20,000 nucleotides of DNA from the sequence record SRR20825019_2182. The stretch is one strand, 5' to 3'. Numbering within the stretch: position 1 is the stretch's first letter; every line of letters begins with the position of its first letter. Below the pieces are notes generated by a model. The model had not been told where the DNA came from. It did no database searches and worked only from the letters and a program-made list of their open reading frames with translations. Position numbers and translations under genes: made by a program. Positions 1-19,657 of the stretch are shown here, piece by piece.

Positions 1-680
1 CTCTTCGCATCCAACCATCCGGCTTCACTGTGTGGCCTTTTCCTTTGATATGGTGTCTTGATTCTCCTTTCTAGTTCTATCCTGTTGTTTTGTCGCTCCG
101 CAAGTCGCCTACGTATATCGGCTCTGATGCAAGTCATGTTTGCCCAGTCTCGATCCTCCGCCGCCATATCATCCTCAAACCTCCGCTTGGACATCAGAGC
201 CGCTTTGAGCTCTTGTTCAGGAGATCTTGTAAAGTGTTTTGGGTTTGGTACTTTGTTTTCGAAGAGGTCATTTGTTGTTGGAAATGGATGACCTCTTTCC
301 TTATATGCGCACTTTTGAGTCCCGCCGCTCACGGATTTCCTCGTCAAAACGTATAAGTGTCGTTCACTGCCTTTCAAAGCCACAGACTTAGCGAACAGGT
401 CGCTCATATCGGTGGCGTCTGATCGAGCGTCATCCCAGTTTATGCTGTCGCGACCACTGCGAACGCTGTTCCGAGAGTCACGTCCACTTGTAGTGTTGGG
501 GCGCCGCGGATCATCTAAGCGAAAACTGGGCTCGTGGAAGGATAGCTGTATTTTAGCCCTTTCTTGTAGTTTCTGCATTTCAAGGTTGCCTGCTGGAGAT
601 TCTTCATCACTCTCACTATCTGGTGTCACAAGTCTTTTCCGTTGCACTGGAGGTCCTGGTTCTTCACCTTCGACAAGCAT
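1..680 (-). CDS. Hypothetical protein, 3'-truncated by the window edge; charged, low-complexity, possible coiled coil
   Basis: Manual translation of the minus strand gives a frame open from ATG at 680 to position 1 (MLVEGEEPGPPVQRKRLVTPDSESDEESP...DIRRRLAERQNRIELERRIKTP..., at least 226 codons), with an in-frame TGA just upstream of the ATG. It is absent from the ORF track, presumably because it has no stop in the window. Upstream exons cannot be excluded. Confidence 0.7.
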   Translation of the reverse strand, partial: MLVEGEEPGPPVQRKRLVTPDSESDEESPAGNLEMQKLQERAKIQLSFHEPSFRLDDPRRPNTTSGRDSRNSVRSGRDSINWDDARSDATDMSDLFAKSVALKGSERHLYVLTRKSVSGGTQKCAYKERGHPFPTTNDLFENKVPNPKHFTRSPEQELKAALMSKRRFEDDMAAEDRDWANMTCIRADIRRRLAERQNNRIELERRIKTPYQRKRPHSEAGWLDAK

Positions 681-969
681 GTCGGGTCATGCAACGGAAG
701 ATCTGCCTCTTAAGTTGTTATATTCAAGGCAGAGTCTTTTACGGCTGTATCGATGCCACACGGTGTTGTACTGATGGGTTCCAGTCTGAGTTAGGGACAC
801 TGTATCAGCTGGCTAATGACGGAGCGTTCGACTTGCTTCCACGGCTGCTATTGGGTGTTCGATAAGACGGCCCCAAAGCAGAAAAATGACGGCCATTAGC
901 GGTCTAGGGAGCACCATAGGTAGCTAGCTACCAAGCGAGAGTACTCATCTATCTCGGAAAGGGTACAGT

Positions 970-1790
970 ACGCCGTCCCGCACCCCGGCCGGCCGGCGCT
1001 CAATTCAACTGATCATGGTCCAGTCTGTGCCGGCGGAGGCAGACTGACGGAGCAGGCGCTGGGCCGGGAACTTGTTGGGGCGCAATCGGGCGAATGCGCC
1101 CTATCACGGCAACGCGTTGTAGCGCTCCGTGCAACTGACCGGACCGCCGGGGCCCGTAGTACAGACGGTGAGAGAGGTCATGAACGTCTTCTTCGTTATG
1201 GTAGGGAGGTCAATCGTTATATCCGGACTCATGAAAGTGCGATGCCAGCCGGCGCCAGCAGTCCGGCCGGCAGCCGGGCTCACGCCGGCCGGGCCGTGGT
1301 CCGGCCACCACGCGCGGCCCCGGGCCGCCGGCCCTCCCCGGTCCGCCACTGGCAGTCACGGCCAGGAGCCGCCGCGCTGAGCTGGTGAGCCGGAGCCGCG
1401 CCGCCCGGGGCGGGGGTGCTGTAGGTACGTGCGGTCGGTCGCGGTCCGCGTCCCGGCGGGTCCCCGTGCTGGCGGGCCGGGGTGGGCTAATTTCAAGAAG
1501 GCGTGGTGTTGGGCGCGGCGCCCACCTGCTGACCCGGCACCGGGCCCCGGGGCCGGCGGCGCCGGCCCCGCGTACTCCCACAGGCTCAGGTGATCCAACC
1601 TCACGTGCCGTTGCTCAGCTCAGCCCGCCGCCCGCCGGGCCCGTCACGGGCAGCCCGGCCCGGCCTGCTGCCGGGCCGGGCGGGCGGGCCGCGCCGGGCC
1701 CTGACATGGATGGCAACTTGACTGACCGGCCGGATGGCTGGATCGTCTCAAGCCGCCAGACCAGACCGGCCGGGCACAACCACGGCTGCG
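970..1790. promoter_or_regulatory. GC-rich intergenic island 1, putative bidirectional promoter region
   Basis: Abrupt shift to CCGG/GGCC-rich sequence between the divergent starts at 680 (-) and 2162 (+). Boundaries are approximate and promoter function is inferred from position. Confidence 0.6.
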
Positions 1791-2161
1791 TCACTGGTAC
1801 TGGTCGGGTGGCTGGTGATCCATTGTCATTGGTACACTGTGGCCTGGACTCACGCATGCCGGCTCCACTAAGGCTTCTAGTGACGTCAGCAGTTCCGCAG
1901 ATTGTTTCGGCGAGGGATATCACGGCGCCTGTAGTTGTGCGCTAGAAGGCTTGTAAGGATATGTTTGAAATATTGTCGGGCTGACTGAATAACTCATAGC
2001 GACCTGGGGGCTGGGAGTTCTGAGAATCCAAACTCCTTGCAGTCTTTCGGGTCAGTCTCTTTCTCCAGCTTGTCAAGACGGGAGGCAGTCAGTCAAGTAG
2101 AAGTGGTGGCGACGGAAGCACTGCATACGAGCCGCTTAATAGTTCTGACCAAATAGACGAA

Positions 2162-3042
2162 ATGAATCGAAGAAGAACAAAAGCAGAGATTCGTCTGAAT
2201 GTATATGATTTACATGATGTAAACCAGTACACTTACTGGGCGGGGGTTGGGGTGTTTCACAGTGGAGTGGAGATTCATGGTGTAGGTGGGTACAGCGGGA
2301 TCTCATCGAGTACTGGTCGTCTCTAAGTTGAAGTTGACAGAGTATACTTTTGGAGGTCATCCGTTTTCTTCCACAGGAGTTTTTGAAGTCGAGCCTAAGC
2401 ATGCTCCAGGGGCTAGGTTTAGGGAAAGTGTGGTGCTGGGTACCACGGAACTGTCACACTATGAGATTCAAAGAGAAGTTCATAAGCTGAAAGCCCCGTT
2501 TGCCGGAAACTCTTACAATATTCTTACGAGGTGTGGATGTTTTGTGCTTTTAAGGAGTTTACCGTCTTATTCGGGACTAGGAACTGCAATCACTTTTCCG
2601 ATGAGCTGTGCAAGCACTTGTTGGGTTCGGGAATTCCTGGTTGGACGAATCGCTTGGCATGGATTGGTGCCCAGCCGTGGGTGCAGTGCATGCTACCGCA
2701 GAGCTTGGGCCTTCAAGTTCCAACCGCAGATGGAGGTATGGCACTGTCATTTGCATCTAGGCATCTTGTTGACTTTCCTTCAGGAGTGGGTACGGCAACA
2801 GTGACGGAGGAAAGGCAGCCATTTGTTGCGTTTAGTGGTATTTGCTGCGGTGAGATGTTTTATGGTCTTTATTCTCACTGTTGGATGTAGGGACTGGCAA
2901 CACGTTGAGTAGTAGCGGTGGTGGTGCAACCATGGCAATTCCTGCCGGGGAAAGTATGGAAGAGACGGAACAAGAGCGTAGGGAACGTGCGGCAAATGCC
3001 GCGATGAAGCGGTTGCTTGCACAACAGAAAGATGACAACTAG
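2162..3042 (+). CDS. PPPDE/DeSI-family peptidase (deSUMOylase/deubiquitinase-like, DESI2-like), about 224 aa, with C-terminal SHP-like and VIM motifs
   Basis: Exons 2162-2285, 2341-2530, 2581-2735, 2784-2837, 2891-3042, joined by GT-AG introns of 55, 50, 48 and 53 nt. The spliced protein has LNVYDL, GVFHSGVEIHGVEYTFGGH (catalytic His, 2258-2260) and YNILTRNCNHFS (catalytic Cys, 2585-2587), then IPGWTNRLA. Confidence 0.93.
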
Positions 3043-3174
3043 TAGAACATTCTGTGATAGATGTGAGTTGTGAGCAAATTGTTGCTAGCACAGCCGTTCG
3101 TGTCAGCATGGGCGCAAGTAAATCGAAGTAGCAATTTTTTGGGGAGTGAGTTAATATTACAATACAGAACAGGT

Positions 3175-3681
3175 TTATTGGAGATAGTTCTCCTGGATGT
3201 ACTCCCAGTTTGCATATGCAAAGGCTGAGAGGGCACCAAACACAACAAGGCCAAAGTAATAGCCGGGGTTGGTACGGCCGTCCTGCTTGGGGACGTATGA
3301 TGCCTTTGCCCTTGCTTCGCGGGCAGCCTTAACCTTTGCCCTTGTCTCCTCGTCCATTTTCAACTCGCCCATATAGTACTGGTCCAGCATAGCCCATGCA
3401 TCATCAGAATGTCCAACATCCTCATAATCTTGGGTAGCATCTTTCCCAGCAATCTCGTGCAAAACCTCCTCACCACCAGGGTGCTCTTCAGCGAACTTTG
3501 TGACGTCAAATACCATGTCGTGAATGACCATCCAGCAGTCGTCTGGAGAGCTATGCTTGGCGACTTCCTCAATGGTGAACGACTTGGCATTGGCGCGAGT
3601 GGGGCGTTTGCGCTGATCAACAGGGCGGTCGGAGGCGAAAGGGTTACGCCCGTACTTCTCAGCAAGGTTTGTCTGCTCCAT
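3175..3681 (-). CDS. CYB5: Cytochrome b5, tail-anchored, 168 aa, intronless
   Basis: FTIEEVAKH, DCWMVIHDMVFDVTKF, HPGG heme ligand, AGKDATQDYEDVGHS second His ligand, and a C-terminal hydrophobic segment YYFGLVVFGALSAFAY. Confidence 0.96.
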   Translation of the reverse strand: MEQTNLAEKYGRNPFASDRPVDQRKRPTRANAKSFTIEEVAKHSSPDDCWMVIHDMVFDVTKFAEEHPGGEEVLHEIAGKDATQDYEDVGHSDDAWAMLDQYYMGELKMDEETRAKVKAAREARAKASYVPKQDGRTNPGYYFGLVVFGALSAFAYANWEYIQENYLQ

Positions 3682-3799
3682 TATATTTTTTTGGTTATAA
3701 TTTTACACAGCCGTGGTTGGTATATTTATGTGAGCGCAGGGGGGTTATCACCGACCAGAAAAGAAGAGGGGTGGTAAGTGGCAAGATAGGAAAGAAGTA

Positions 3800-4760
3800 C
3801 TGGGTACCCAGAGCGCCAGGGAAGGGGGGGGGGGGGGTAGCGGGGCCTGGTACGACAGCGGCGCCTTTTGGAGGGTCCCCATGGCTCAATCAAATCCATG
3901 GCACGGGGTCGTCACTGCCAAGACCTAGCTCAGCAGGGCCACCCGGAGCGTGGAGGCGGGTGGCTCAAAATAACTTCACAGCCCACCCAAAAAAGTAAGG
4001 TTAATGATCCCTAGAGGCTAAAATTAGCCGGGTAAGGATAGAAAATAGATCAACTACTAGTCCAAATTAGTAGCGAGTCAGCTTGGGAACGTGGCCGCGG
4101 AGTCGCCGAAGAGATCGGTGTCCGGGTCACGGTTACACGATTGATGCGATTGCCGGGACGTCAGCCCACGCACGGCTGCCAGTTACGTTACGCTGCAACG
4201 TTCAGTTCTGTGGCATGAACAAGGTCCGACTGGTCCGCCTGTCCGGTCACCATCATCCGGCGGCCGTGGGCGGCTCACCGCCCGTGCGACAAAGGCCGGC
4301 CCGCAGGCCATCCGTTTCAGCCAGCCTTATCCAGTCAGGCCCCGGTGACGACCGGCATCATCACGACGGGCTCAGGCATGCGTGTCGAGCCATGACTGCA
4401 AGGCGCATGGCACGCCCCCGACTTTGGGCCGCCGCAGTGGGCCTTCATTGGCCGATCGGGGCGAAAGGCTGGTGGGACCTCTCCACCTTCACCGGGTCTC
4501 GGGGCGCCGCCCGGCCGAGCTCGTGTGAACGTTACGATGATGCCCGGCCTGGTGAGCCGTGCTCTCACCATAATGCGGGCATGCTGGCCCCCTCGGTCCT
4601 GGCTCTACTAGAGACGAACCGGAGTCGTCATGCTGTCGCGGTGTCCCAGATATCACCGAGCCGCGTGCTGCAACCACTCAGGTTCCAGTGCGGTTCGGAT
4701 ACCCTTGCGCTCTCGGCGGATCAACACTACACGGATGAACGACTGGGGCCGCCGGGTGTG
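3800..4760. promoter_or_regulatory. GC-elevated intergenic island 2 (milder than the others), putative bidirectional promoter region
   Basis: Lies between divergent starts 3681 (-) and 4961 (+). Contains a G14 run at 3824-3837 and a CCGG/GGCC-rich part at about 4090-4760. Boundaries are approximate. Confidence 0.5.
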
Positions 4761-4960
4761 TGAACTTTCCTTTTCAAGCACTCTCTGCAACTTTGGTGAA
4801 GTCCTTGCTATCGTTTTCTTTGGAATATAACAATGCTCTTGACAGTTATAAAATCCTTTAAGACACGGGCGCTGAAATCCCCTTTGGCCAAGTGTGTTCA
4901 TCTAGACCTAGAGACTACTTGGGAGCGGCGGTTGTTGGTCGTGTACATAGAATATAAAGA

Positions 4961-5618
4961 ATGGCGGATCCTAGTTTGCGGTGGCGGACCTTGTTCCAGA
5001 ACGAAGAAGATGACAAATATGAGGAAGCTGACGAGTTCATGGAGGTGAGTGCTGCGTGAACCAAGCATGGGGTATGCAACTCACTCCTTGGTAGGATGGT
5101 CTCGAGGATGAATATGTTGATAGTGAAGAGGAGCAGGTTTTAGACTATGATAACGAGCCTGTGCTCTTGCTGAACTGTCGTGGTTGTGGGGAGGAGCTTT
5201 GCTCCAGGGCTATGAGGGTGGTGCTTATCGCAGACAACAAGACTGAGTTGTTCTCAACTGATCAGCGGTCACGGTATGTAGCATCTTCTCTCCTCATCAA
5301 GCCTCTTGACTAAGTGAATATGATAGAAACGTGTCTGTACATGGGCCTGGGTACACAACGCAAAAGTGCTTGTGTGAAATTAGGGATATATATTGCCTGG
5401 AATGTGGCAATGTAGTGGGTTATCACGTGTGCAACGCCTGCGTATCATGTTTGGGGGCAAGTAACAATGGTCACTACTGGCTGTTCCAGCCGACTGATGT
5501 GACTCCAAAGGAGAGAAAAGATGACCATGGAAGGGTTCTCACCTGGGGTGACAACATTCCCAGCGGAGACTACTGCCCAGCTCCAAAGCAATTTTCCCTT
5601 GTATCTATTGGGCGATAG
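4961..5618 (+). CDS. FAM72: FAM72-family protein (Yippee/Mis18-like Zn-binding fold), about 184 aa, with acidic N-terminal extension
   Basis: Exons 4961-5044, 5095-5273, 5327-5618, with introns of 50 and 53 nt. Spliced protein LLNCRGCGEELCSRAMRVVLIADNKTELFSTD...KCLCEIRDIYCLECGNVVGYHVCNACVSCLGASNNGHYWLF matches the FAM72A pattern as recalled (LCCKFC...SRGMKAVLLAD...LFSTD...CLKCGNIVGYHV...CNNGHFWMF). Confidence 0.92.
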
Positions 5619-5839
5619 CTAGGTACAAGCTACTAACCCTACTCACCTTTTTCAATCTCGCTCACAACAAAGTAACAACCCAAAAACAAAACGAATGATA
5701 TAACTTTGATCGAAATGTCGGAAGTGTAAATACAGGGTTTATACGTGGAATTCTACCAGATACTGGGTCAACTTGGGCCACACATGGCCGGTTTGTGGCC
5801 GGGTTCAGTTTTTCAAGCTCGGTGTTCTCACTGAACCGT

Positions 5840-7711
5840 TCACCCTTGTGCAACTCGTGCAGCCTTGTCCTCTTCATCTTCGTCAATCACACGAGTCTGG
5901 GACAATCCAGCCATTTCTCTGTCCAATTGCTCTAGTCGCTCCAATGCTGCCTGCTTCTTCTCATGCCAAGACATACCATCATGCTCCTCTACGATGCTAT
6001 TGTACAGCTGTCATTACAACAGTGAGTTCGCCAGCAACTGGATGAAAACAACCGCGACTCTTACCTTTACAAAACCCTCGAAATCAATAGGAGCCGAGAT
6101 GCTCAGACGAGTCATGTTTTCTTCTATATCCAATGAAGAAATGGAGGAGACAGTTCCCAGTCTTTGGACGACCTCGCGGGCCCCACTTATCGACATTCGT
6201 CTCCTAAGGTCGTGAGAGCCAAGCTGTCGGCAGAACTCTCGACGAATACGAGCGATTTCGACATCTTTCATAACTGGGAGCATGAAATCCTCTAGACCCG
6301 CGTCATCTCCAACCTCCCTTCTTCTCTCCTCAATAAGCTCGAATCGTTTTACCTCCTCCAGTTCTCCTTCTACCTTGCCAAGGCGTTCGGATAACTGTGA
6401 TATTCTCTCCCGCAAGGAATCTCGCTCAACCTCCATTGCTCTTTTCTTCACACCAATTATCCCGAACGCCTCCTCTTCATTGCTGGTCTGGCGCACCTTG
6501 AAGGCGCTGTACATACACATCAAGGTGGTGGTAGAGTTCGGATTGATGGATAACTCAAGCCAGGCTCTCAAACGTCTCTCAAGCACTGCACGCGGATATT
6601 GATCGAGGCCTGACAACAAAGTTGAAATCAAGGTATTTTTTTCTTCGCGCACCCCTAACTCACCTTTAGTAAGAAGACCTCTTCGCTTACAAGCTAGAAG
6701 TAGTTCCTCCTCCGTCATGTTGCTCACTCCTTCCCAGTAGATGTCCTTGTCATCCTTTCTAATGCTACGCATTTCAGTCCTTATAAGCACACGCAAAGTT
6801 CCACTGGTCAAAAACGGGCTGCCAATATTCAGCATGGCACAAATCCTTTGCAAAACGATGCGGGGAACATCATCGAGGGTTATATGCTTGCTAAACAGCG
6901 GCGCAAGCGATTCCATAAACTCATTCGTGTTGACATGTGTGTTCTCGTCCACAATTCTTTCGTAAATATCCACGATCTTCCTGATGTCATCCGTTGAGAC
7001 ATCTTCATTTTCCTTTTCAACTTCTCGGACAAGTTCAATGGCGGCTTGGCTTAGTAGTTCGGCATTGGCCACTTGCTCTTTCACTCTCTTGTCCAAATCA
7101 GCATCGAATTTTTTCTCGTTAAACCTGCGAAGTATTGGCTTGAAGTGACTAGGGAGAATGACCGGGAAAACCCGCACCTGAACAGAGGGTTAGAACGCCA
7201 GAACCGCTCCCATTCCTCCATATGCTTCACTTACCGTCACCAAGTTTGTGATCGTCATTCCTGTAGTCATCACACTAGCCGCAAACGGCAGCACTCGAAA
7301 GAGGTCCGTGGCTGCTTGACGAAGCAAGTGCCTTTCCCTTCGAGTGTGACGATGGCCTTGAGCATACCGCCGTACCAAACGCAGGGACCACTTTAACTCT
7401 TGGTAGAAAAGTCCAAATGCACGCTTATACTCTAAAAAAATCTCTTTCACAATCTCCAGCTTCCTAAAAAGACCCGACCTCCCGTTTTTATGCTCTGGCT
7501 TTGTGGACTTCTCAGTCGTTCTACCTGCTACCACTTTCTGCTCCGTTGAAAACAAGCGTGTTGAAAGACAACGGGTTGCCGAGGCAGGTTGGCGACATAC
7601 AGGAACCACTACCCTCAGACGTGTCATCCCGAACCCAGTACTAGCAGGCACGGTGTACTTCGTCGAGGAAGCTCGCCACACCGGAAGACCAGCACGAACC
7701 AGACGAATCAT
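5840..7711 (-). CDS. LETM1-domain mitochondrial inner membrane protein (LETM1/Mdm38-like), about 585 aa
   Basis: Exons 7711-7235, 7177-6065, 6007-5840, with two 57-nt phase-0 GTAAG...CAG introns. It has an Arg/Ser/Thr-rich presequence-like N terminus, TRRERHLLRQAATDLFRVLPF, FPVILPSHF, ITLDDVPR, IRKDDKDIYWEGVSNMTEEELLLACKRRGL, LRAWLELS, a coiled coil and a degenerate EF-hand-like IDFEGFVKLY. Confidence 0.9.
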
Positions 7712-7809
7712 ATTGAGCGCGTTTCAGGACAAAGTCTAAAGCGCATCAAGAGACTGCTTCCTTGAAATCGCTGACAGGAATATTAATAACTGTGATGAGT
7801 GTGTGACGC

Positions 7810-8727
7810 TACCGTCACTACCGTCGGCTCACGTACGGCCGGGCCGAGCCGGGCGCTGAACTGGTCCGTCCGAGTTAGGGCGCGTGCGGCGGGTGGACCG
7901 GACACGGTCACGGGGCCAGTGAGCGGGCCCGACCGGGTGGCCCTCGGACGGGAGCCCGGCCGACCGGGCCCCGGCGGGCGGCCCGGCGCCGCGGGGCGGC
8001 GCCGCCCCCCCGCCCGGCCCAACCCGCCCGGCCGCGCCGGCCTGGTCAGGTGACCGCACTGACCGGACCGGACCGGGACGGCGTGGCGGGCCCCCGGCAC
8101 TGGCACCCACTGCGGGCCAGGCTCCCCGGCCGGCGGGCTCCAGTGCCGGCCCGCCGGCACACGGGCCGGGCCGCACGCCGCGACTGCGACCATGGCATGC
8201 CCAGCCGGTGTCCGGTGTCCGCCCGGTCCCCGCACGGCCGGCCCAAGGCCCGGCACGCGGTGATCGGACGGGACGCGATGCCGGGTCGAGCCACCGTGCC
8301 GTGGCACGACCGGACCGCGGCCGGCCCGCCGCCCGGGCGGGCGGGTCACTCAAGCGGGGCAGGCGGGTGAGGGTCGCAGCGGCGCGGGGCGCGGCCCGGC
8401 GCCGCGCGGCGCCTCGACTGACGCCGACCGTGCCGTGGGACGGACGTGAGTGACCCGGGACGCGCGGCCGCCGCGGGGGGGCCGGGGCCCGCGGGTCACG
8501 GAGGGTCAGCGCCCCGAGTCGGGGCACTGCAGGCTGAGCCCCCGGCGCCGCGCGCCCGGCCCGGCCCCGGGGCCCGGGGCCGCCGGCCGGGCCGGCCCGC
8601 CTGAGCCCGGGCGGGAGCCCGGCGGAGTCCGGTCGGGGCGGCCTCCGGTCTCCGGTGACGCCGCGGGCAAGCGTCAGGAGCCGCGGCCTCGGGCACGGAA
8701 CCGGGTGCCGACCGGCCCCTCGGTCAC
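7810..8727. promoter_or_regulatory. Extremely GC-rich intergenic island 3, putative bidirectional promoter region
   Basis: Lies between divergent starts 7711 (-) and 8848 (+). Pure G/C runs at 7964-8020 (57 nt) and 8538-8601 (64 nt), and (GACCG)3 at 8061-8075. Confidence 0.65.
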
Positions 8728-8813
8728 ATGAAATACCCGTTTCCCAGTACGGTCAGTCTAGCAGCAAAAGCACTGCCTTCAGGTTCCCACTGACTAAAGA
8801 ATTCTGTGCTCAC

Positions 8814-8823
8814 GTCACGTGAC
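8814..8823. promoter_or_regulatory. GTCACGTGAC palindrome (extended E-box), candidate bHLH/bZIP site
   Basis: Perfect 10-bp palindrome ending about 25 nt upstream of the ATG at 8848, within CACGTCACGTGACTGACTC. Function is inferred. Confidence 0.35.
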
Positions 8824-8847
8824 TGACTCGCGAGCCGACGTAAAGTT

Positions 8848-9609
8848 ATGAGTGAGCGCTTTACTGTGGACAAGAAGGATAGGTTCATTAGAGAAGCAAG
8901 AGAATATGCAAGTGCAAACTGTGTATCTATACCCCTTTCCGCTATAGAAGAGCTCGACTCGAAAGGGGTGACAGTTCTTGATGGGCTGTTTGAAAGTCAA
9001 AGGAGCATGCTCAAAGAGTTGGGTGGTGATGTGTCGCGGTTGTGCGACAGTGGAGCACTCGCTGCTGCTCAGCAAGGGGCATCTGTGCGGGGTGACAAAC
9101 TTGGGTTGTTTCACGAACACAATGCGGAAGACATGCACGCACATGGCTTGCTTGAGGGTATTTTGGTGATGAAGTCCATTGGACACTCCCTCGAACAGGC
9201 ATGGGCAGAAAAAACAGGCGAGAAGCCTAGTCTCAGGGTGCCTTCACGTGTGATGGCGGCAGTATACGATGGTAGTGGTTCCAAGTATATAGCACACAGA
9301 GATGTCAGGTCTGTAGGATTCGACGATCCGAATTGGTGGATGATGCTGGAGCCCGAAATATGTGAACGGTATGTCACCGCGATTCTTTATCTTCCCAACC
9401 AGGACTGGGAGATTCCGAAAGGAGGGGAGCTTAGATGCTTTTTAGGCGCTCACGAAGATGATATCGAAGGGAAGACCGCCAACGAAACCATGGATATCGA
9501 GCCTGTTCCGGGGCGGCTGGTCTTGTTCATGTCAAGGGACGTTCTCCACGAGGTGCGACCAGCGCACTCACGGCGGATGGCCACCAGCATATGGTTCTTG
9601 AAGAAGTGA
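8848..9609 (+). CDS. EGLN/PHD-like 2-oxoglutarate/Fe(II) dioxygenase (prolyl 4-hydroxylase type), 253 aa, intronless
   Basis: GVTVLDGL, VRGDK, MAAVYDGSGSKYIAHRD (HxD), RYVTAILY, DW...GGELR, IEPVPGRLVLF, LHEVRPA (distal His) and RMATSIWF (2OG-binding Arg). Confidence 0.9.
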   Translation: MSERFTVDKKDRFIREAREYASANCVSIPLSAIEELDSKGVTVLDGLFESQRSMLKELGGDVSRLCDSGALAAAQQGASVRGDKLGLFHEHNAEDMHAHGLLEGILVMKSIGHSLEQAWAEKTGEKPSLRVPSRVMAAVYDGSGSKYIAHRDVRSVGFDDPNWWMMLEPEICERYVTAILYLPNQDWEIPKGGELRCFLGAHEDDIEGKTANETMDIEPVPGRLVLFMSRDVLHEVRPAHSRRMATSIWFLKK

Positions 9610-9611
9610 GC

Positions 9612-12148
9612 TCATTGAACTGTTTCCGTAATAATGTACTCCACTCCGTCAACCTCAAGGCGATGATGCTCGATTGGCGTTTTGTCAAGATCGGGCGGTT
9701 CGCTGGAGTGGACTTGTCTCGAAGTATGAAGCATCTTCTTCGGTTTGGCTGGTGATAATGGCTTCGCAATGTTATACAAGGAGATCGGCCTGTCGATGTG
9801 GCGTTCATGCACGCGGGGTATAGCCTCTGTCGCAAGTGCGGGATTGTTTGCCCTGTCCTTGACCACCTTCTCTATGTCATCGTGGTGGTATATTGCCCTG
9901 CCCAGGAGTAAGCACTACTAGATGCCACACACCACCCAACTTACTTCTTTCTCCTTGTTAATGCAATCTTCTTGTACCCCGTTATAATCCGCGTGGTTGA
10001 ATGTGGAACACGCAAACTTCCAGGCCGCGGTGTCGGGGACTCACCGCCAGCTGTCCATGGTCGTTGGGACCAAGGAAGCACCTTCCGCGGCTCGGGTGGA
10101 ATGGCATACGTATTAGGGGCTTCAAGCCATGGGTATTCGAGGGGTTGTTTAGAAAGCTCATCGTCTTTTGTTACTTCCTGGGGTTGCTCTTTGTCCTTCC
10201 AGCCACTCATGGAGGCCTCCTCCGCAACTGTTTTCTTTGTTTCTTGAGGACATCCACCCCATTGTAAACCCGGTGCCCCCTTTGGAGCGACAGTGTAATC
10301 ACCCAGGTAGTGGTATACCAATGACAATTCTGTGTTGCACATAGAGTGAAGTCCAATGTAGTAAATACCGTCGTCTAGCCCAACAGATTCGGGGTTGAAC
10401 TGAAGTAGAGGCTTGCCCGTCCCATTGAGAGTGTAGATCGCATTCTCAGCACAGGGGTACAGCTCCGAAGAGATGTACGTGACAATGCGAGGGTTCGCTA
10501 GGAAACCCTCGGCCTGTATGGACAGCTCGAATGTCTTCGATAAAGAGTGCTTATACTCAAAGGAAAAGTATTGCACTGAGCCTGCTCGCACGGTGATAGG
10601 GCATCTCTGGTCGGCGTCGATTTCAATCACACGATCCTCACCCTCGGTCACATACATCATGTACGGGCAATCCTTATCACTTGAGATGATGGTAGCATGG
10701 ATCTCTCCCCCAATTCCTATGATGATGTTCTTTGGCCACACAACCACCCGTCGCCATGGTTGATCCTTGGATAAATCAAAAGACAAATCATGCTTCTTGG
10801 CGGTTGGGACACCGTAGTTTGTTAGAAGCAGCCGTACAGTAGATTTAAATGGCATTAGGTTGCTGACATGTATACAAATGGGCTGGTCATGTTTCCTAAC
10901 AGGGATGCGGTACACATTGGGGTGTTTGCTCCTCGCCAGGTGAGTATAATGATAGTTGTGCTTTGCTTGAATAATATTCTGCTTCCCCGATATTCTTGCG
11001 GACACAAAACAGGAAGAAAGCGTGGCGGGACCCTCAATGCTGAAGTAAATCCATCCCGCCTTCAAGTTCTGACTGCATTGCAACACGGTCATACGTTTTG
11101 CATATCTGACAGGGGAATCTTCCCCTCCGCTTTCTCCAGAATCTGAAACCTTTCCCGTACCGGGCTTCGTCATTGACGCTGCCTGATATGATGCGCTGTC
11201 GATAATGACAACCGAACTGGAATTTCTTGTGGTCCATTCACAAGTGCTTCGCGTGGGGTGCGTGCACATCGCACTACAGTACATCTGTCCTTAAGGTCAG
11301 AACAAATTAGCAAATGACTTACTTTTGATCACACTCACATTAACATCGGGGCCTGTCCCTGTATCGACGATGATACTGAAATCGGCGACTACAGGAAGGC
11401 GGAACCTTCCAAAGACATATGTGAGCTCGTTTGGTGAGATGAGTTTGGTAGGCTTGTCTTGGAGTTGAATTGTTAGGATCTGTTCCGGCATTCTGCGGGG
11501 CGACAGAGGTACCGGTTTCTCCTGCTCTGACTCATCTCTACCTGGCGACGGGCTTGTTCCTGTGATAGCATCACTCGTACCGGACACAGTGAATACTTTC
11601 TTGGGAAGACTTGACACATTTGATGAAGGAGACTCAAACGGTATCATGCGTGGCTTGATAATGCTACTCTTTGAGACATCAGCATTATCTGGAGTTCCTT
11701 TGTCGATCGCGGGAAAAGGCCTGTCGCTTGCCATTCCCATGGAGTTTGTTGCGCTGTTAAGGTATCCTGCAGAGTGCGGAGAATCGTCTTTAAGATGCAT
11801 GCCCACATTCACCACTCCAACGTTTGGTAAGACTTGCGGGCTAGGTGACCGACGTAAAGGCCTAGGCTTTATGGGAATCGGGGAGCGTCCTCCCCGGGAT
11901 GGTGGCCGTGTAGCTACAGGATTTTCCATATTCAATGGTGCAAACGATGTCATTGAGTTACTATGCTCCGAGATGACATTGACAAAAGCTGTCAAGGAGT
12001 TTTCGCGGTTTGGATAGCTTGGCATCTTGTCGAATTGTCCATCGGTGTCGATTCCCGGGCTGTGAGGGGTCCATGGGCGGACATGGGAGCTGGTCTCGAC
12101 GGAGACAGATAGGGGTACATGCGACCCCTTCTTGTGAGGTTTACCCAT
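9612..12148 (-). CDS. Large hypothetical protein, about 811 aa: Ser/Pro-rich disordered N terminus and beta-rich, possibly PPC-like, repeats
   Basis: Exons 12148-11339, 11284-9945, 9897-9612. Introns 11338-11285 (54 nt, GTGAGT..CAG) and 9944-9898 (47 nt, GTAAGT..CAG) join three track ORFs in frame. There is a probable 5'UTR intron at 12207-12151 (57 nt). Confidence 0.8.
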
Positions 12149-12479
12149 CCCTGCGATCAGCACTTCATTCGTGGTGCGCTGCTACAGCTCCAACAAAGAG
12201 CACACACCTGTGACTCCGTTCTGATCGATCAGGCACAGGAGGGCTTCATATAGCTTCGTTATGAAGCAACCAACTCTCTAGCTCTGGTTTTGCCCGCTCC
12301 CGTACGTCCATTAGGCAGGATGGTCTCCTTGCTGTCAAAGCGATCGTGGGGACGCGACTGGCGATGACTCGTCCTCATGGCCATAGCATCGTTGCTGTCG
12401 TCCACACGCACAGTACCGTGGGAGGATCGGATTCAACTAGAGTGGAGTGGGCCCGTCCACAGCACTGGCAGTAGTTGGC

Positions 12480-13330
12480 GCTGCTCGGCGACCTCACGGT
12501 GATGCGTGCTGAGGAGGCCGTGGCTGTGTTGGTGTCGCACACCGCCGGCGCCGGCCCGGTTCTGTGAGTGGTCGGCACGACAGAGGCCGGAGTGCCACCG
12601 CGCGGAGGAGGGTCTGGGGCCGTCGGTCCCCGGCCGTCCGGGCGCGCGCCGTCGGGTGCGGGCCGGCCCGGGCTGCCGGCCCGGAGCCCCAGGGAGACGC
12701 CAGCCCCCTCCTGATGAGTGCGGCCGGCCTGGCCCCGGCCGGCGCGGCCGGCCCAGAAATGTGGCCGAAGCCGACACTGTACTCTACCCGTCTGGCGCCG
12801 CGGTCGGCCGGGCGCACCGGCCGGGCGTGCGCGCCCCGGTAACCGCTTCATCAAGTCCATAATCGAGTTAGCAGTCCGAGGGTTGTGGGGACACACCCAG
12901 CCGATTCCGATTCATTACCAGTGCCCGCATGGGCACTCGCAGGTCACACAGTAAAGGAGTGATTTCATTTCATCGACGACGTCAAAACTAAGAGTCCAAG
13001 AAATACAGGAACGTCAACTGCTAGCACACAGTGGAACGCCGCAGCTGCACTGACCCGCCGGCCATCGACGCATGACAGTGGGTGGGTCGCGCCGCGGGCG
13101 GCGGGGGTCGCCTGCCCGGGCGAGCGTCGTTCATTCGGCACGCACACGCGGCGCGGTCGGCGGGCGGTGTGGTGGGCTGGAGTCACCCGCACAGCCCCCG
13201 CCGGGCGCGTTGCGCCGGTGCGGGTGGCCGGTCGGGTAGCCTGCCCGTCGTTGCTGCCTTGCGATTCATAGCTCGGCCGCCGGGGGCGCAGAGACTCATG
13301 AGTGAGCGGCAACGCCCGAGGCTGCCACAG
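12480..13330. promoter_or_regulatory. GC-rich intergenic island 4, bipartite, putative bidirectional promoter region
   Basis: Lies between divergent starts 12148 (-) and about 13524 (+). GC cores at about 12540-12840 and 13055-13290 are separated by an AT-richer spacer. Confidence 0.6.
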
Positions 13331-13523
13331 TGCCAACCTTGCCCTGCCCCTTGATGCCTGGCGGCAGGTGCTTGATGCCTCTTTTCCTTGGCCGGCCTTG
13401 AAAGTGCGCCTGGCCGCTAGGCAGCAGTTCAGGTTTGACTTTGAAGTAGAAGTACATTCCAGAAACCCTATACATAACGGACCTACCACACGAAATCTTC
13501 AGGTTGGCCAGCTCGTATTCAAC

Positions 13524-16500
13524 ATGAGCAATCGCGCCACACAGAAGGCCCTGGAGTACCAAGCTGCTCTCAAGCGTATTACACTGGCCAAACAAAACCG
13601 CAAGCAGAGGAAATTTACCCGGGTAGATGACGATGATGTTCAGGAGTTTGCAAAAGGAATGGGCACAAACACGTATCGACTGCCCCAGCAGTGGACCAAC
13701 GCCGATGCAGAGAGTTCTGCATTGCCGCCAGGTGTGAAATTAGTCCAACCCAAATTCCGCGTGAAGCAGAAAACCACCACCTCCATCTTCAGTATGCAGG
13801 AAATTTATCACAGTTCAGATGAGGAGTCAGTCACTGGCTCAAGAAAGAAAGAGAAAAGTAAGCACAGTTCACCTCAGAAGGGCTCGCAGAAACACAACAA
13901 ATTTGGGTCGGTAATATCTGTGGCGGAGGCACAAGCCAGAAAGAAGGAGGCAGATCAGAGGAAGCTTATGGGTAAGTCAAGTAAGCTGACTACCTTGGAT
14001 ATATTGGAGAGTCTTCTTGACTTGAAGAGGATTGAGAGCCTTCGGTTGCAGTTTGACAAAGAGGAAGAAGGTTTAGACAAGGCGCGATTCGTGCAAATTA
14101 TGGCGGCGCACTGCCCAGAGCTGGAGGGACCCCTACTTATCCCCACACTGGTGGAACTGTTCTCACAGATTGACGCGAACGGAGACGGTGACTTGTCCTG
14201 GGACGAGTTTACGAACTTCATTGTAGAGTCTGGAATGGTGCTACAGGATCGTTACAGGAAAGATGCAATCACACCATACTATCCCAGTCCTATCATTGAT
14301 GACTCCCAGCATCACGCACAAGTCGACAAGGTCTTTTACGTCCGTGCTTTGGATCAGTTGATCATATCAGAACGTTCCTACCCGGTGGTTCTCATGTATA
14401 ATCCCCAAGAGCTGACTCCGACGAGGCAGCTGCGTGGGCATAAGGGCCAGGTGCTTTCCGCAGAAGCAATTCCAGAACACGGGGTCTTAGCAACTAGCGG
14501 TGCTGATATGTCCATTATGTTTTGGGACATGAACACATGGACAAAGAGGAAGTCGATGCATGAGAGATATGCCCAGATGAAGCTATTGTGGAGTCGTGAG
14601 TACGACACCCTTTACTCTGCTGGTGCGGACAGCATCATACGAGGATATGATGTTCGGAATACTAAGGAGAAGTTCCGTCTTGAGGGTCACAACGATATTG
14701 TCATGGACCTTCTTGCAATTCCCGGACTGGATTTCTTGGCATCAGCATCATTAGACCAAAGGATTATTCTGTGGGATATGCCCACAAGACAATTCAAGAA
14801 AGAGCTCAAGGGGCACACGAAAGGAATTTTGTCTCTCACATACTCTCAGGACTACAGGTTCCTTGTGAGTGGTGGGTCTGAGCACGATGCCATTATATGG
14901 AATCCGTTTGTAGAGACTGTCATCTTCCGTCTACGTGGCCATAACAGTTCCTTAATTGGCGTGGAGGCAATCGAGGGAACGCCTCAGATTGTGACCGCCG
15001 ATTCCGAAGGATTCTTCAAGGTGTGGGACATTCGAAACTTCAGATGTGTTCAGACCTTCCAGTCCGAGGATGCGATTGGAAAAGAGATTGCCTCATTCTG
15101 CGCGGTTCCCGCTTACAAGAGGGTGGTTTGCTCGGCACGGAAGCTTATTGCGTTTGACTTTGTCGACAACATGGACCCACGTCTAACTGACCAGACTCCG
15201 GTTCTCTGCACCCTGTACAATCCCGCTTCTTCGACCTTTGTGACTGCAGGGTCAAAAAGCGTTAAGCTTTGGGATGCCGCCACAGGAAAGTTGAAGTGCA
15301 CATACAGGGACCTCTCCCAGCATGAGATTACCTCTTTCTGTCTTGACGACCGCTTGTACAAGTTTGTAGTTGGCGACCACGCAGGAAATATTCGAGTCTT
15401 CAATTACTCCAATGGAGCGTTTATGAAGAGCCTAGAGCCGCACCAGCGAGAAGTTTCTAATTTGATCTATTCTGGTGCCTCAAAGACTGTGATCAGTGGA
15501 TCTTGGGACACTCGTATATGCATTCACGATGAAAACAGCGTTGGTGTCGGCGGTCTTCTACGCGCCATGAAAGCCCACAATAAGGATATCACCTGCATGT
15601 CATACTCGGCCCAGCTTCATCTTGTTGTTTCTGGTTCTAATGACACCCTCCTGAAAGTTTGGGATTACCGAGGTGGAAAACTCGATGGAATGTTCGATTC
15701 GCACGAGGCGGACATCACTGCGGTGACTTTCCTGGGAAAGCACCCCTGTCTCTTTTCTGCGGATAGTTCGGGGGTATGCTGCATATGGACCTCACATCCG
15801 TCTCCTTATAAGGTTTGTGATATTGGAAGTTTATTTTGGTTATTTTGGTTCCTTCACTAAGTATTGTATGCAGTATCGCCTGCTTTTAAAGTTTGAGAAC
15901 AAGTTCACATCCCCAACATCAGGAGAAGAAGTTGCCAGTTGTATTAGCGCTGCTGCGTATTGCGAGTATGAAAGTGTATATATATTGAGAGTGTATTGCC
16001 TAACACAGCAATAGGGATCAGATGATTATGTATACCGGGGACGAACACGGAGAAATCAAGGCGTGGGATATGAAGGCCATTCTCAAGGCCCTCCACATGT
16101 ACAAGGACCCGAACACTGCCGGGGCCAAGGTTGCCCCAGACGATCCCGAGTCCAGGGTCTCACTGCCTGGCGCGATCACTGCAGTTATGGCCGTCAAGAA
16201 GTTCAAAAAGATGTACCGGAAGCGCAGTAGCATCAAGTTGACGGTTCCGTATGTCACAGCTCACCAGATGCCTATGATTGGCCGATGGCAAGCCCACACC
16301 GACGGTATGATGCTTCGATTGTAGTGTTGCGGACTTTGATACTTATGAATTCTTTCAGGTATTCGTCACTTGCATGTCACGGAGGATCCTAGATCTGTGA
16401 TTTCGTCGGGATACGACTGCATGGTGCATATCTGGTCTGCGCCAGACGGAGCCAAGATTGGGTCACTACATCAAGGAATTTCTCCGGAAGAATGGTATTT

Positions 16501-17182
16501 CCCAGTGAATATAGGTAAGAGCAAAAAGAATAGTTGGTATTTCTTGCAGCTAATATTGGAACAGTTGCTCGCGATCGTATGAAGAAACAGGAGGTTGATA
16601 CCGTTATGAACGAATTGGAGGAAATTGATCCCTTGTCGGAGTTGGAAACTGAATCTACTGTCAGTGACCACCCTCTGACTGCCGAGCAAAACCTTTCTCA
16701 GGTAGGACTGATGTGAAACAATGCGCGCCCGGGAATGCTCATTGTGCCATCAGCTATCTATGTTCCTTCCCAAGGACATCGACTGGAAATCAGTTTTGAG
16801 TGATGATATGTTGCACCAGAATACCCAAAAGAAGCCTCCTTCTAGGCGTCCTTTACACCTCCCGAACCGCTCATCAAGTACTCAACCCAGCTTGAGGAAT
16901 TCGTTTGGGATAGACATTTCTCCGCAACATGAGAGTAGCAAGTCCACGACGAAAGTAGGCTCATCTCGATTCACCAAGGAGCAGCGCCGCGCCGCACAGA
17001 AATTCAGTGACTCTCTTGCTGATACGTTGAGCTTCAAGGACGATGATTCATTAGCGGAGTGGTACAGATCGCTAGGAGGTAAAAGACTAAATCCCAAGGC
17101 GGCGGAAGGGAATCCCGTTGCGCACCACTCCAGACCAAGTACTGCCCACAGCCGAATGACAGACAAGGAGAATTTAAGCTAA
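13524..17182 (+). CDS. EF-hand plus WD40-repeat protein (WDR49/EFCAB8/WDR64-like architecture), about 1130 aa
   Basis: The first in-frame ATG is at 13524 (frame open from 13302). Exons 13524-15812, 15874-15965, 16015-16304, 16359-16514, 16565-16701, 16754-17182, with introns of 61, 49, 54, 50 and 52 nt. Canonical EF loop DANGDGDLSWDE at 14172-14207 and many GH...WD repeats. The start codon is uncertain. Confidence 0.88.
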
Positions 17183-17511
17183 ACTTCTCTCGGTCAAAAT
17201 GATTCCATCATAATTAGCTAAAGGACGGTGCGCTAGAGAGTCTTCATGTAATCGGTGCGATGCAACGTGATTGCCTGACAATAAAGGAAGCCCTAACCAT
17301 TTACTTTCAAGGATAGTCATGAGCAAGACATTCGTTCCTATCGCGGCTCTGTCACTGCCAATCTTCGCACAACGTTCACAAGCCGACAAATGCCGCGGGG
17401 CTGCCACCCGAAAACCAAGGATAACTTGGGAAGTGACAATTGAGGCCACAAATTCACAAATCGGAAAGTTTGTAACCATAAGGGATTCGGTGAATACGTT
17501 ATTGTGCTAAA

Positions 17512-17915
17512 GGGGGTCCAGTGGGGTCGACTTGACCGGCACGGCCCGGCCGGCCGGGCCAGGGCGCACCGCGGCGCGGGGGCGGCGGCCCCCCGGGCGC
17601 GGCCGCGGCGCGGGGGCGGCGGGCCCCCGGGCGCGGCCGCGGCGGGGTCGCCCCGGGCCCGCCGGCCCGGCCGCGGCGCTGAAGTTGGCGCCGGGCTTCG
17701 GTTCCCAGTTGCCCGCCGGGCCGGCCCGGCGCGGCCGGCCCCCGGCCCGCGGTCCTGAGGCGCGACCGTGGCCGCCGCCGGGGCACCGGCGACCGCGGAC
17801 GCCGCCAGCGGCACCCAAGGGCCGTGCCCGCCGCCGGCGCCCCGCCCATCGGCGGGCGGGCGGCCGCCACAGGGCGCCCCTGCGCAGCCGCCCGCGGCCG
17901 CGAGGTCCTTGTGAA
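17512..17915. promoter_or_regulatory. Extremely GC-rich island 5 upstream of the 7TM gene
   Basis: A 79-nt run with no A/T at 17569-17647. The island ends about 135 nt before the ATG at 18049, and the flanking genes are in tandem (+/+). Confidence 0.6.
17570..17644 (+). repeat. 34-bp pure-G/C tandem duplication (about 2.2 copies)
   Basis: 17570-17603 CGCGGCGCGGGGGCGGCGGCCCCCCGGGCGCGGC and 17604-17637 CGCGGCGCGGGGGCGGCGGGCCCCCGGGCGCGGC differ by one mismatch, followed by a partial copy CGCGGCG. Confidence 0.85.
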
Positions 17916-18048
17916 AGGCCTAGCACGTCGCAGCTCCGAGCACTGAACTGCACCGCACCCGAACTTCGATGATCTCCGGGGTAGCTTAGTTTATGTATCC
18001 GTTTATGACACTACTAAACACTGTTGAAAATTCAATCATACTTTCAAG

Positions 18049-19657
18049 ATGGGGCGCTTTCCGAAAGGAAGGCTCCTCCCTGTTTTTCTTGGATTGCTTT
18101 GCCTATCAATGGCACCTAGGTTAACCACTGCTCTTACGAAGAACTTTCATATAGGTATTGTGTATCCAGGCTTTGTTTTCTTGCCACGTGGCTAATATAT
18201 GTCCTTGCGTACTAGGTAGTGCTTTATCACGGGTAACATCCGTGCTGGATCAGTTTGGTATCGAGCGTGGGGGCACCATTGACTGTGAACTTCACTTTTT
18301 GTCAACAGACCGTCACTACTTTGCTGCACTTTATGCAATCCAGAAGTGGAGGGACTTCGAAGTCAGAGCCAAACTGAATGAGGAGTGGATTTGTTCATTT
18401 CCTTCAGACATGCGCATAGAGCTTACAGGTCACACACTACAAAACAGCGGAAAGGTGACTATTCAGTTGCACCATGTTGTGAAAAGGACAGACCTCTATC
18501 GACTGGTAATCCTGGACTGCCCTGGTGGCGTCGACCATGGAGAAAGGACTAGTGCACACGGAGGGAGTGGAACGTGCACAATTAAGAACTCTTCAACGGG
18601 CCATCTCCCCCTCGAGGAAGTTCACATCATTGTTTGCATGGATGTTTTGACGGTATTGTACATTGTTTTATTTATTTCCTTTCTTATCTACACGGTCTTG
18701 AAGCGCAAGAATTACACCCACCTTCATGGGATTGTGTGTGTGGCAATGGCCATGATGGCGTTGATGACATCGCAACGCAGCCTCTACCAGAGAACTATTC
18801 AGGACAGCGGCTCTGTGGGAGAGTTTGCGGAGTTTTATTTTATTGTTGTGGAGCTGCTGGCAAACATGTCAGTTTTGGTGGTGATGATGCTTGCCGCGGT
18901 GGGGTGGCAAGTTGTACGCGCAGCGTTGGAGGCCCGGGAGCGTTCCGTGCTTTCATCAGCCTTCATATTTTATGGTTTCCTTGGGTTTTTGTACGAGACG
19001 TGCGAGCAGGAGCACATGTGTGGCGCATACTTGTTGTCTTTCTACGTCGTGAAGTTTCTCATCACCCTGGGTATTATTGTGGGAATGAACGCGACCGCCG
19101 AGCGAATCAGGGCTGATTATTGGGAGCAGGTGTCTGCCCACGCACAGGGAGAATATTTTTCAAAGCTGCGGCAGTATCACCACTTCAGGTGGTTGTTTGC
19201 GGTATATTTATGTATCCCCGTCGCCACCCTGGTTTTGCGTATGTCAGTCTTGACCTGGAACGACAAATGGCTGCTTTATCTCTTTGAAGGGCTGCTGGAG
19301 TTCTATGTGCTTGCCAAATTCTCCATCATATTCCGTCCGAATCACACACCAAGTATTGAGATGCTTCCGCCAGAAAGTGACAGTGAGATGGGAGACCACA
19401 TCAATCGTGAAATTGAGATGGAGAGGCGGAGGCGCGCTGATTTGGATGGGTTCGGGGAAGATGACGATGATGATTTGTTCTTGAGACGCGCGGATGCAAA
19501 TGAAGGAGAACAAGGATCTCGTGATTCGGAAGGAAGTGGGCGTAGTGAAGAGGGCGGTGGCGGTGATGAAGATAGCATGCGTCAGGACTCGTCTTTGTAC
19601 ACCAGGCGGAGAGACGTCAACGGTGTTTATGTCAATGTACCAACATCTGAGGACTGA
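18049..19657 (+). CDS. Signal peptide, luminal domain and seven-TM protein, GOST superfamily-like (GPR107/GPR180/TMEM145/TMEM87), about 515 aa
   Basis: Exons 18049-18154 and 18216-19657, with a 61-nt intron (GTATTG..CTAAT..TAG). Exon 1 supplies a signal peptide (LLPVFLGLLCLSMA). It has FGIERGGTI at the start of the luminal domain, HLPLEE before TM1, THLH, LAAVGWQVVRAAL, about 7 hydrophobic segments, IFRP after the last TM and an acidic tail. Confidence 0.82.

Follow-up and report, generated by a model that had tools for sequence, protein, structure and literature searches.

Sharply bounded GC-rich blocks lie upstream of AT-rich promoters at the gene starts of a compact genomic window

Introduction

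What are the blocks of very high G+C that stand at the gene starts of an otherwise compact stretch of DNA, and what process could have built them? The question is raised by one 20,000-nt stretch of sequence record SRR20825019_2182 (hereafter the window), in which five such blocks, called islands here, and nine genes were examined. The original prediction, made from the letters of this stretch, was that the islands form a CpG-island-like promoter architecture, reversing the AT-rich promoter composition of many compact genomes, and that they are maintained by strong GC-biased gene conversion or by a chromatin or methylation-reading system. Our analysis places the islands at the gene starts and the start sites outside the islands. 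In this layout the GC block has an AT-rich core promoter on each side and, further out, a transcription start site (TSS) and a gene that points away from the block. A GC block upstream of an AT-rich promoter at each gene-start junction is unusual for a compact genome.

Results

Islands accompany gene starts but lie outside the mapped start sites

An island stands in every one of the five junctions of the window that contain a gene start and in no convergent junction (0 of 3; Fisher exact p = 0.018), which bears out the predicted tie to gene 5' ends and the predicted absence from 3'-3' junctions. Four of the five are divergent, measuring 1481, 1279, 1136 and 1375 nt from ATG to ATG, and one is tandem (866 nt); the convergent ones measure 132, 221 and 2 nt from stop to stop. 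No island core overlaps any coding sequence (CDS). The island of the tandem junction goes with the 5' end: 61 nt separate it from the ATG of gene I downstream, against 291 nt from the stop codon of gene H upstream.

Transcript evidence came from contigs of one sample of one study (two public runs, with 63% and 7% of the sampled words). On the window these contigs behave as cDNA does, with spliced joints, a poly(A) end and template-switch tags. Adapter sequence was found at eight loose contig ends, and in seven of them it includes the 3' portion of the SMART oligonucleotide for template switching (...ACATGGG); the identity of this tag was checked against a published primer table, where the oligo-dT primer ends in ...GTAC-T30 instead. 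Where such a tag stands, the RNA template had its 5' end.

Results showed that none of the five tagged 5' ends on the promoter side (711-, 2001+, 3696-, 4860+ and 7755-, the sign giving the strand) lies inside an island. Their distances from the islands are 240, 173, 67, 104 and 32 nt, respectively, and the 5' untranslated regions (UTRs) that they define for genes A to E are short (15-161 nt). The gaps between island and start site have a GC content of 0.36-0.51, and each of the five ends has a TATA-like A/T word in the 40 nt before it, near -10 or -30. We also noticed that the first base is A in four of these five transcripts. For the four genes placed by their ATG only (F, G, H and I), the island is 70, 288, 106 and 61 nt away from the ATG, respectively.

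Genomic GGG directly before the tagged end, which is the usual mark of strand-invasion artefacts, was found at none of the seven tagged ends, and a stall of the reverse transcriptase at the GC wall is unlikely considering that the tagged ends are not at the wall. Therefore, with five mapped starts outside the islands and in AT-richer gaps bearing TATA-like words, the island is an upstream block and not a CpG-island promoter containing the start, contrary to what had been proposed. Promoter composition is not reversed with respect to compact genomes either: the core promoter is AT-richer, as it is in those genomes, and the island lies upstream of it.

Contig cover is absent from the island bins 4003-4669, 8005-8671, 12674-13340 and 17343-18009, and almost absent from 1335-2001. 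As DNA of 80-90% GC is poorly recovered, this missing cover was not used as evidence of no transcription. Two further tagged ends fall within coding regions, that of gene G at 11577 (-) and that of gene I at 19246 (+), and neither is preceded by a TATA-like word. RNA breakage could have produced them, or they could be internal start sites that lack an island. The contig beginning at 19246 continues beyond the end of the window.

Extent, composition and edges of the islands

GC content was profiled in 200-nt windows, islands were segmented by merging 100-nt windows with a GC of at least 0.65, and cores were called with a two-state hidden Markov model (HMM) on GC. The islands have 62-80% GC as blocks and 71-91% GC in their cores, on a background of about 0.45-0.55 (0.49 outside the islands). 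HMM cores span 253-888 nt, and cores make up 13% of the window and blocks 22%.

Island 1 (951-1828, GC 0.72), in the divergent junction of genes A and B, has its HMM core at 1244-1701 (0.81) and a flank of about 63% GC at 951-1243. Island 2 (3763-4756, GC 0.62), in the divergent junction of genes C and D, is mild, with cores at 3813-3865 and 4257-4517 (0.71). A run of 14 G at its edge (3824-3837) is the sole long homopolymer of any island, runs of G or C being avoided elsewhere. Island 3 (7787-8777, GC 0.80), in the divergent junction of genes E and F, has one continuous HMM core at 7836-8723 (0.84). Island 4 (12437-13417, GC 0.70), in the divergent junction of genes G and H, is bipartite, its HMM cores at 12477-12839 (0.79) and 13037-13289 (0.77) being separated by a gap of 57% GC. 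Island 5 (17474-17987, GC 0.80) lies in the tandem junction, between the 3' end of gene H and the 5' end of gene I, and has its HMM core at 17536-17902 (0.91).

We also observed that ordinary or AT-richer stretches split islands 2 (3866-4256) and 4 (12840-13036) into sub-blocks; searches of these two stretches against Rfam and for tRNAs gave no match. Besides the islands, the profile has two small blips, at 10005-10120 and 16075-16174 (GC 0.63-0.65).

These measurements agree with most of what had been read from the letters. Within the limits first proposed for them, the five blocks have a GC of 0.73, 0.63, 0.83, 0.71 and 0.88, against 0.49 outside. The announced A/T-free runs have exactly the stated lengths: those of 57 and 64 nt lie in island 3 (7964-8020 and 8538-8601) and that of 79 nt in island 5 (17569-17647). 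Cores of at least 80% GC had been claimed for four islands; three reach this value and island 4 is borderline, with a peak 200-nt window of 0.80. Island 2 is indeed milder, at 0.62 for the block, and exons are near 50% GC with AT-richer introns, as described (CDS 0.496, introns 0.429). The statement that CpG is not obviously depleted in the genes holds roughly, yet a mild depletion is present, the observed/expected ratio (o/e) in CDS being 0.81 against 0.95 for GpC.

The o/e of CpG is 0.91-1.08 in the islands, that is about 1.0, and 0.80 outside them, and the density of CpG per 100 nt is 16.9 in cores against 4.8 outside. Outside the islands TpG has an o/e of 1.15 and CpA of 1.24, and CpG depletion is mild.

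The edges of the islands are step-like. When core edges were averaged, the eight outward 25-nt bins were flat, at 0.51-0.56 GC, and the first inward bin was at 0.87; this inward value is inflated by construction, because HMM edges fall at GC runs, and it is the flatness of the outward bins that is informative. GC at third codon positions (GC3) is 0.48 in the first 50 codons of the nine genes, against 0.53 overall. The islands contain no N, are unique sequences with clean edges, and are seen in the assembled sequence alone.

Sequence texture and rejected identities

Each island is strand-symmetric, with G close to C and A close to T, and all dinucleotide o/e values fall between 0.82 and 1.25 (CpG 1.01). 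No motif dominates the islands, the best 6-mer excess being 1.55-fold. Words that contain A or T, ATGAAA among them, are over-represented across them (for ATGAA, 12 observed and 2.8 expected). Tandem Repeats Finder placed 26 of the 28 tandem arrays of the window in islands. Most of these are short and weak, and the sole clear array, of 34 nt x 3.5, lies in island 5 (17562-17679, score 159, 85% matches). Short matches between islands number 190, against 26-74 in 20 first-order Markov simulations.

Several identities were tried and rejected. In line with the first reading, the islands are not protein-coding exons: GC varies little with codon phase, by no more than 0.08 in any one island, and the five island open reading frames (ORFs) tested lack Pfam families. 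Long open frames in all six island frames follow from the AT-poor DNA, stop codons being AT-rich. Searches of the islands against Rfam and for tRNAs gave no match. Also in agreement with the first reading, the islands do not form a family of transposons or repeats, the highest-scoring blastn match between islands reaching 41 bits (81 nt, 73%) against at most 37.4 bits in 20 first-order Markov simulations. Dispersed repeats were rejected as well, as a repeat search yielded only 33-nt words of 65-79% identity, which are compositional. Cruciform or hairpin-rich DNA is not indicated by the DNA fold (z of -0.02 and -1.51 against dinucleotide shuffles), nor are G-quadruplex arrays, with just six motif clusters in the window, five of them in islands. 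The A/T positions of the cores have no 10-nt nucleosome periodicity, only local clustering at lags 2-6. A GTCAC-type motif has 18 of its 59 copies in islands, which are 22% of the window.

Gene models and compact layout

The nine gene models translate without internal stops, and most of them are backed by spliced cDNA contigs. Fifteen spliced joints are listed, skipping 47-61 nt with ends GT..AG or CT..AC. Exact GT..AG borders were obtained by joint refinement, and two introns (11285-11338 and 16702-16753) are predicted from the sequence only. CDS accounts for 12,258 of the 20,000 nt (GC 0.496, GC3 0.531), and the 17 introns are all tiny (47-61 nt), of the GT-AG type and of 0.429 GC. The cDNA contigs differ from the window at 15 positions, all in transcribed DNA and balanced between changes of A/T to G/C (7), changes of G/C to A/T (7) and one C>G.

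Gene A (3..711, minus strand) encodes an unknown protein and runs off the window, with a CDS from 680 down to 3 and its tagged 5' end at 711. Gene B (2001..3042, plus strand) has a PPPDE/Peptidase_C97 domain (Pfam), a CDS at 2162-3042 with four introns, and its tagged 5' end at 2001. The product of gene C (3175..3696, minus strand; CDS 3681 down to 3175; tagged 5' end 3696) is a cytochrome b5 (Pfam). Gene D (4860..5691, plus strand) encodes an unknown protein of 185 aa including the stop position, from a CDS at 4961-5618 with two introns; its tagged 5' end is at 4860, and the one loose contig end with poly(A) is at 5691. Gene E (5840..7755, minus strand) is LETM1-like (Pfam), with a CDS from 7711 down to 5840, three introns and its tagged 5' end at 7755.

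Gene F (8848..9609, plus strand), known from its ATG, is a single-exon CDS for a 2OG-Fe(II) oxygenase (Pfam). Gene G (9612..12148, minus strand, ATG at 12148) encodes an unknown protein of about 812 aa, with an intron at 9898-9944 seen as a cDNA joint and the predicted one at 11285-11338; one cDNA contig extends to 12213. Genes F and G are convergent, and their stop codons (last coding base of F at 9609, G from 9612) are 2 nt apart. One cDNA contig (9291-11115) crosses both stops, so that the 3' UTRs of the opposite strands must overlap. Gene H (13524..17182, plus strand) encodes a protein of 1131 aa with WD40 beta-propellers (Pfam) and an N-terminal part that is EF-hand-like by eye. Five of its six introns are cDNA joints or sequence-refined, the sixth being the predicted one at 16702-16753, and the most AT-rich introns of the window are four measured ones in its 3' half (31-37% GC). 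Gene I (18049..19657, plus strand) encodes a GOST-type seven-transmembrane protein (Pfam) and has an intron at 18155-18215.

Relatives of the encoded proteins

For the 2OG-Fe(II) oxygenase of gene F (8848-9609) and the GOST protein of gene I (18218-19654), a collection of 5.8 billion proteins yielded no similar-length relative with E <= 0.001. The protein of gene H had one specific match, in the labyrinthulomycete Hondaea fermentalgiana (32% identity), the rest being generic WD40 proteins. Protein comparison thus points to a lineage that is poorly sampled. A scan of metagenomes with an exon of gene H returned 13 loci of 25-53% identity, nine of them with a GC of 0.19-0.31; no island-like 200-nt window (at least 0.2 GC above the median of the locus) was present in any of the 13, which are too distant to bear on conservation.

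Discussion

A GC of 77-91% is beyond what escape from CpG decay can give, and calls for selection on composition or for some force by which G and C become fixed. The original prediction had likewise argued against protection from deamination as in vertebrates, which cannot alone yield such values. We tentatively favour, giving it somewhat less than an even chance, the explanation that the islands are sharply confined hotspots of recombination or repair with GC-biased gene conversion (gBGC), feedback and slippage. Recombination or repair would be initiated in the chromatin upstream of promoters, at the blocks, and strong gBGC would drive these to 77-91% GC. Considering the step edges and the lack of spill-over into codons, conversion tracts must be short and the process kept within narrow limits. 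Probably it also reinforces itself, as CpG-dense and presumably unmethylated DNA may draw the break machinery, upon which GC and CpG would rise further, and replication slippage may add the weak tandem texture. The blocks would then be a by-product of the recombination landscape, maybe co-opted as spacers of divergent promoters, and would not be the core promoter.

The position, strand symmetry, absence of motifs and variable strength of the islands fit gBGC at hotspots, which is the known promoter-linked force where hotspots track open or unmethylated chromatin. As far as position goes, the islands are where hotspots of this kind should be, at five of five start junctions and at none of the three convergent ones. 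Island GC varies from 62% to 88%, as expected of hotspots differing in intensity or age, and the equal use of G and C and of A and T, the flat dinucleotide o/e and the lack of long alignments between islands are the composition that a fixation bias would leave. Comparable associations have been reported elsewhere: birds have hotspots near TSSs and CpG islands (10.1101/023101), yeast has GC-rich, nucleosome-free recombination hotspots at divergent promoters (10.1101/119768), and in Chlamydomonas recombination peaks just upstream of genes (10.1101/340992). In the dog, gBGC is described as sharply raising substitution in CpG islands and making new ones, non-methylation attracting recombination (PMC4350167), and gene conversion is reported in Cryptococcus for a GC-rich intergenic stretch that extends over the 5' ends of RPO41 and BSP2 (PMC3390403).

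Several observations weigh against confined conversion. The gradient that hotspots should leave is not seen, as the outward bins are flat at 0.51-0.56 and GC3 near the gene starts is 0.48 against 0.53, and the gaps between islands and TSS or ATG have only 30-55% GC. Simple gBGC, as first proposed, is strained by the step-like edges and by the GC3 of the first 50 codons, which is not raised, because it would give GC shoulders extending into the near-neutral flanking sites and there are none. Conversion tracts in yeast are hundreds of nt long and would blur such edges. Moreover, the cores have a texture of their own: among 4-mers made of G and C only, CCGG is at 1.6, GCCG at 1.42 and GGCC at 1.37 times the even expectation, GGGG (0.47 times) and CGCG (0.72 times) are depleted, and the autocorrelation of G versus C at lag 2 has a z of -7.9, a doublet texture. 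Such higher-order texture is not predicted by gBGC alone. Meiosis in this organism and recombination at the islands are presumed in this explanation, which draws on five islands of one window.

The sharp edges would suit a selected chromatin element that acts by its composition, either as a nucleosome-favouring and hard-to-melt spacer that positions the neighbouring AT-rich, nucleosome-free core promoters and shields the two divergent promoters from each other, or as a platform for a reader of unmethylated CpG. We regard such an element as the main alternative, possible if rather unlikely. It would account for one block per 5' junction (five of five, and none at the three convergent ones), for the 13-22% of the window that is given to islands despite introns of 47-61 nt and 3' junctions of 2-221 nt, and for a CpG density of 16.9 per 100 nt in cores against 4.8 outside. 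The avoidance of G runs and of alternating CG, which leaves few G-quadruplex motifs, goes in the same direction. A dominant influence of GC content on intrinsic nucleosome occupancy has been reported (PMC2808325), as has a high occupancy encoded by human regulatory DNA (PMC2817738). However, the A/T positions of the cores lack a 10-nt periodicity, block size varies (cores of 253-888 nt), and island 2 is weak (62% GC), yet both its genes have mapped transcripts. Selection of bulk composition at 90% GC would also be an unusual constraint, and the chromatin state, the methylation and the reader protein are all presumed. The doublet texture (CCGG at 1.6 times, lag-2 z = -7.9) would fit a self-expanding, GC-rich cryptic simple sequence, whose CCGG- or GGCC-like units would grow by slippage or unequal exchange and survive only in 5' intergenic DNA, the 3' junctions and introns being constrained in length. 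Although the islands contain 26 of the 28 tandem arrays (periods of 4-34 nt), among them the 34-nt x 3.5 array (85% matches), these are mostly weak (scores of 30-78, 61-100% matches, just one above 100), and most of the island sequence is not tandemly organised. The 190 short matches between islands, against 26-74 simulated, also speak for expansion of this kind, but slippage alone explains neither the near-pure G+C of the units nor the block at every 5' junction, and we consider it improbable.

Still less probable is that the islands are something else, such as replication origins, a family of transposons, exons or genes of high GC that escaped annotation, or an error of assembly. The five island ORFs tested lack Pfam families, GC hardly changes with codon phase, no Rfam or tRNA match was found, and the islands do not align with one another as transposons would; the long open frames in all six frames, which might suggest genes, are expected where stop codons are AT-rich. 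DNA of extreme GC is hard to sequence and errors are conceivable, but the islands are five unique sequences with clean edges and no N. We give the least credence to CpG islands of the vertebrate type, that is, unmethylated promoter DNA escaping CpG decay in a methylated genome. The ratios of CpG (about 1.0 in islands, 0.80 outside) and the outside values of TpG (1.15) and CpA (1.24) have the right direction. The bulk depletion is mild, however, and the classical CpG-island criterion barely discriminates here, since 108 of 290 non-island 200-nt windows pass it (GC of at least 0.5 and o/e of at least 0.6). Escape from deamination cannot reach 77-91% GC or A/T-free runs of 79 nt, and none of the five promoter-side tagged 5' ends is inside an island.

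Returning to confined conversion, a wider proposal can be formulated, which we consider unlikely but worth stating. The window may come from a poorly sampled, deep-branching protist with a genome-wide system that evolved independently of vertebrates, in which one sharply bounded, CpG-dense block per gene start is kept at 80-90% GC by a self-reinforcing loop between a CpG reader and GC-biased recombination or repair, and would act as a spacer setting where the AT-rich core promoters open. If the pattern is genome-wide, it would offer a very clean natural system for studying why gene starts acquire islands rich in GC and CpG. The combination of a compact genome with extreme islands puts the signal far above background, and with sharp edges and start sites outside, the island can be separated from the core promoter, unlike in vertebrate genomes. 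The blocks would also be strong markers of gene starts for annotation, again if genome-wide, and they are likely sites of dropout in short-read assemblies and RNA-seq.

Comparison with known systems

Among open-access papers and preprints, taken without their supplements, we found no account of a compact protist genome whose gene starts all have GC blocks as extreme as these. The nearest systems each share a part of the pattern. The GC peaks at hotspots of PRDM9-less organisms (birds, dogs, yeast and Chlamydomonas) have in common with our islands, as far as they are described in the reports cited above, the position at 5' ends or divergent promoters, the strand symmetry and the absence of motifs. 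Here, in contrast, the amplitude is far larger, with cores of 77-91% on a background of 49% GC, the edges are steps, no GC3 gradient enters the genes, and the start sites are outside the blocks. The CpG islands of vertebrates are likewise CpG-dense segments of about 0.5-1 kb at 5' ends, often common to divergent gene pairs and with a CpG o/e of about 1. Vertebrate CpG islands contain the start site; on the contrary, none of the five tagged ends lies inside an island here, the bulk depletion of CpG is mild (0.80), and GC is much higher than escape from deamination would give.

The MAT locus of Cryptococcus neoformans resembles our junctions in having a discrete GC-rich intergenic block of 0.614 kb that is spanned by the 5' ends of two genes, and its GC peak is reported to be kept across lineages (PMC3390403). 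As that report presents them, this block and the GC-rich hotspots flanking MAT are a few special loci, whereas a block is present here at every 5' junction of the window, and conversion was measured there, whereas our blocks are known from their letters. Finally, the compact genome of Theileria has the same order of intergenic lengths, with 5'-5' junctions as the longest class and 3'-3' junctions as the shortest (PMC2612703), comparable to 1136-1481 nt and 2-221 nt in our window. In Theileria the 5'-5' regions are reported to be slightly more AT-rich than the 3'-3' ones (PMC2612703), whereas in our window they hold the most GC-rich DNA of all.

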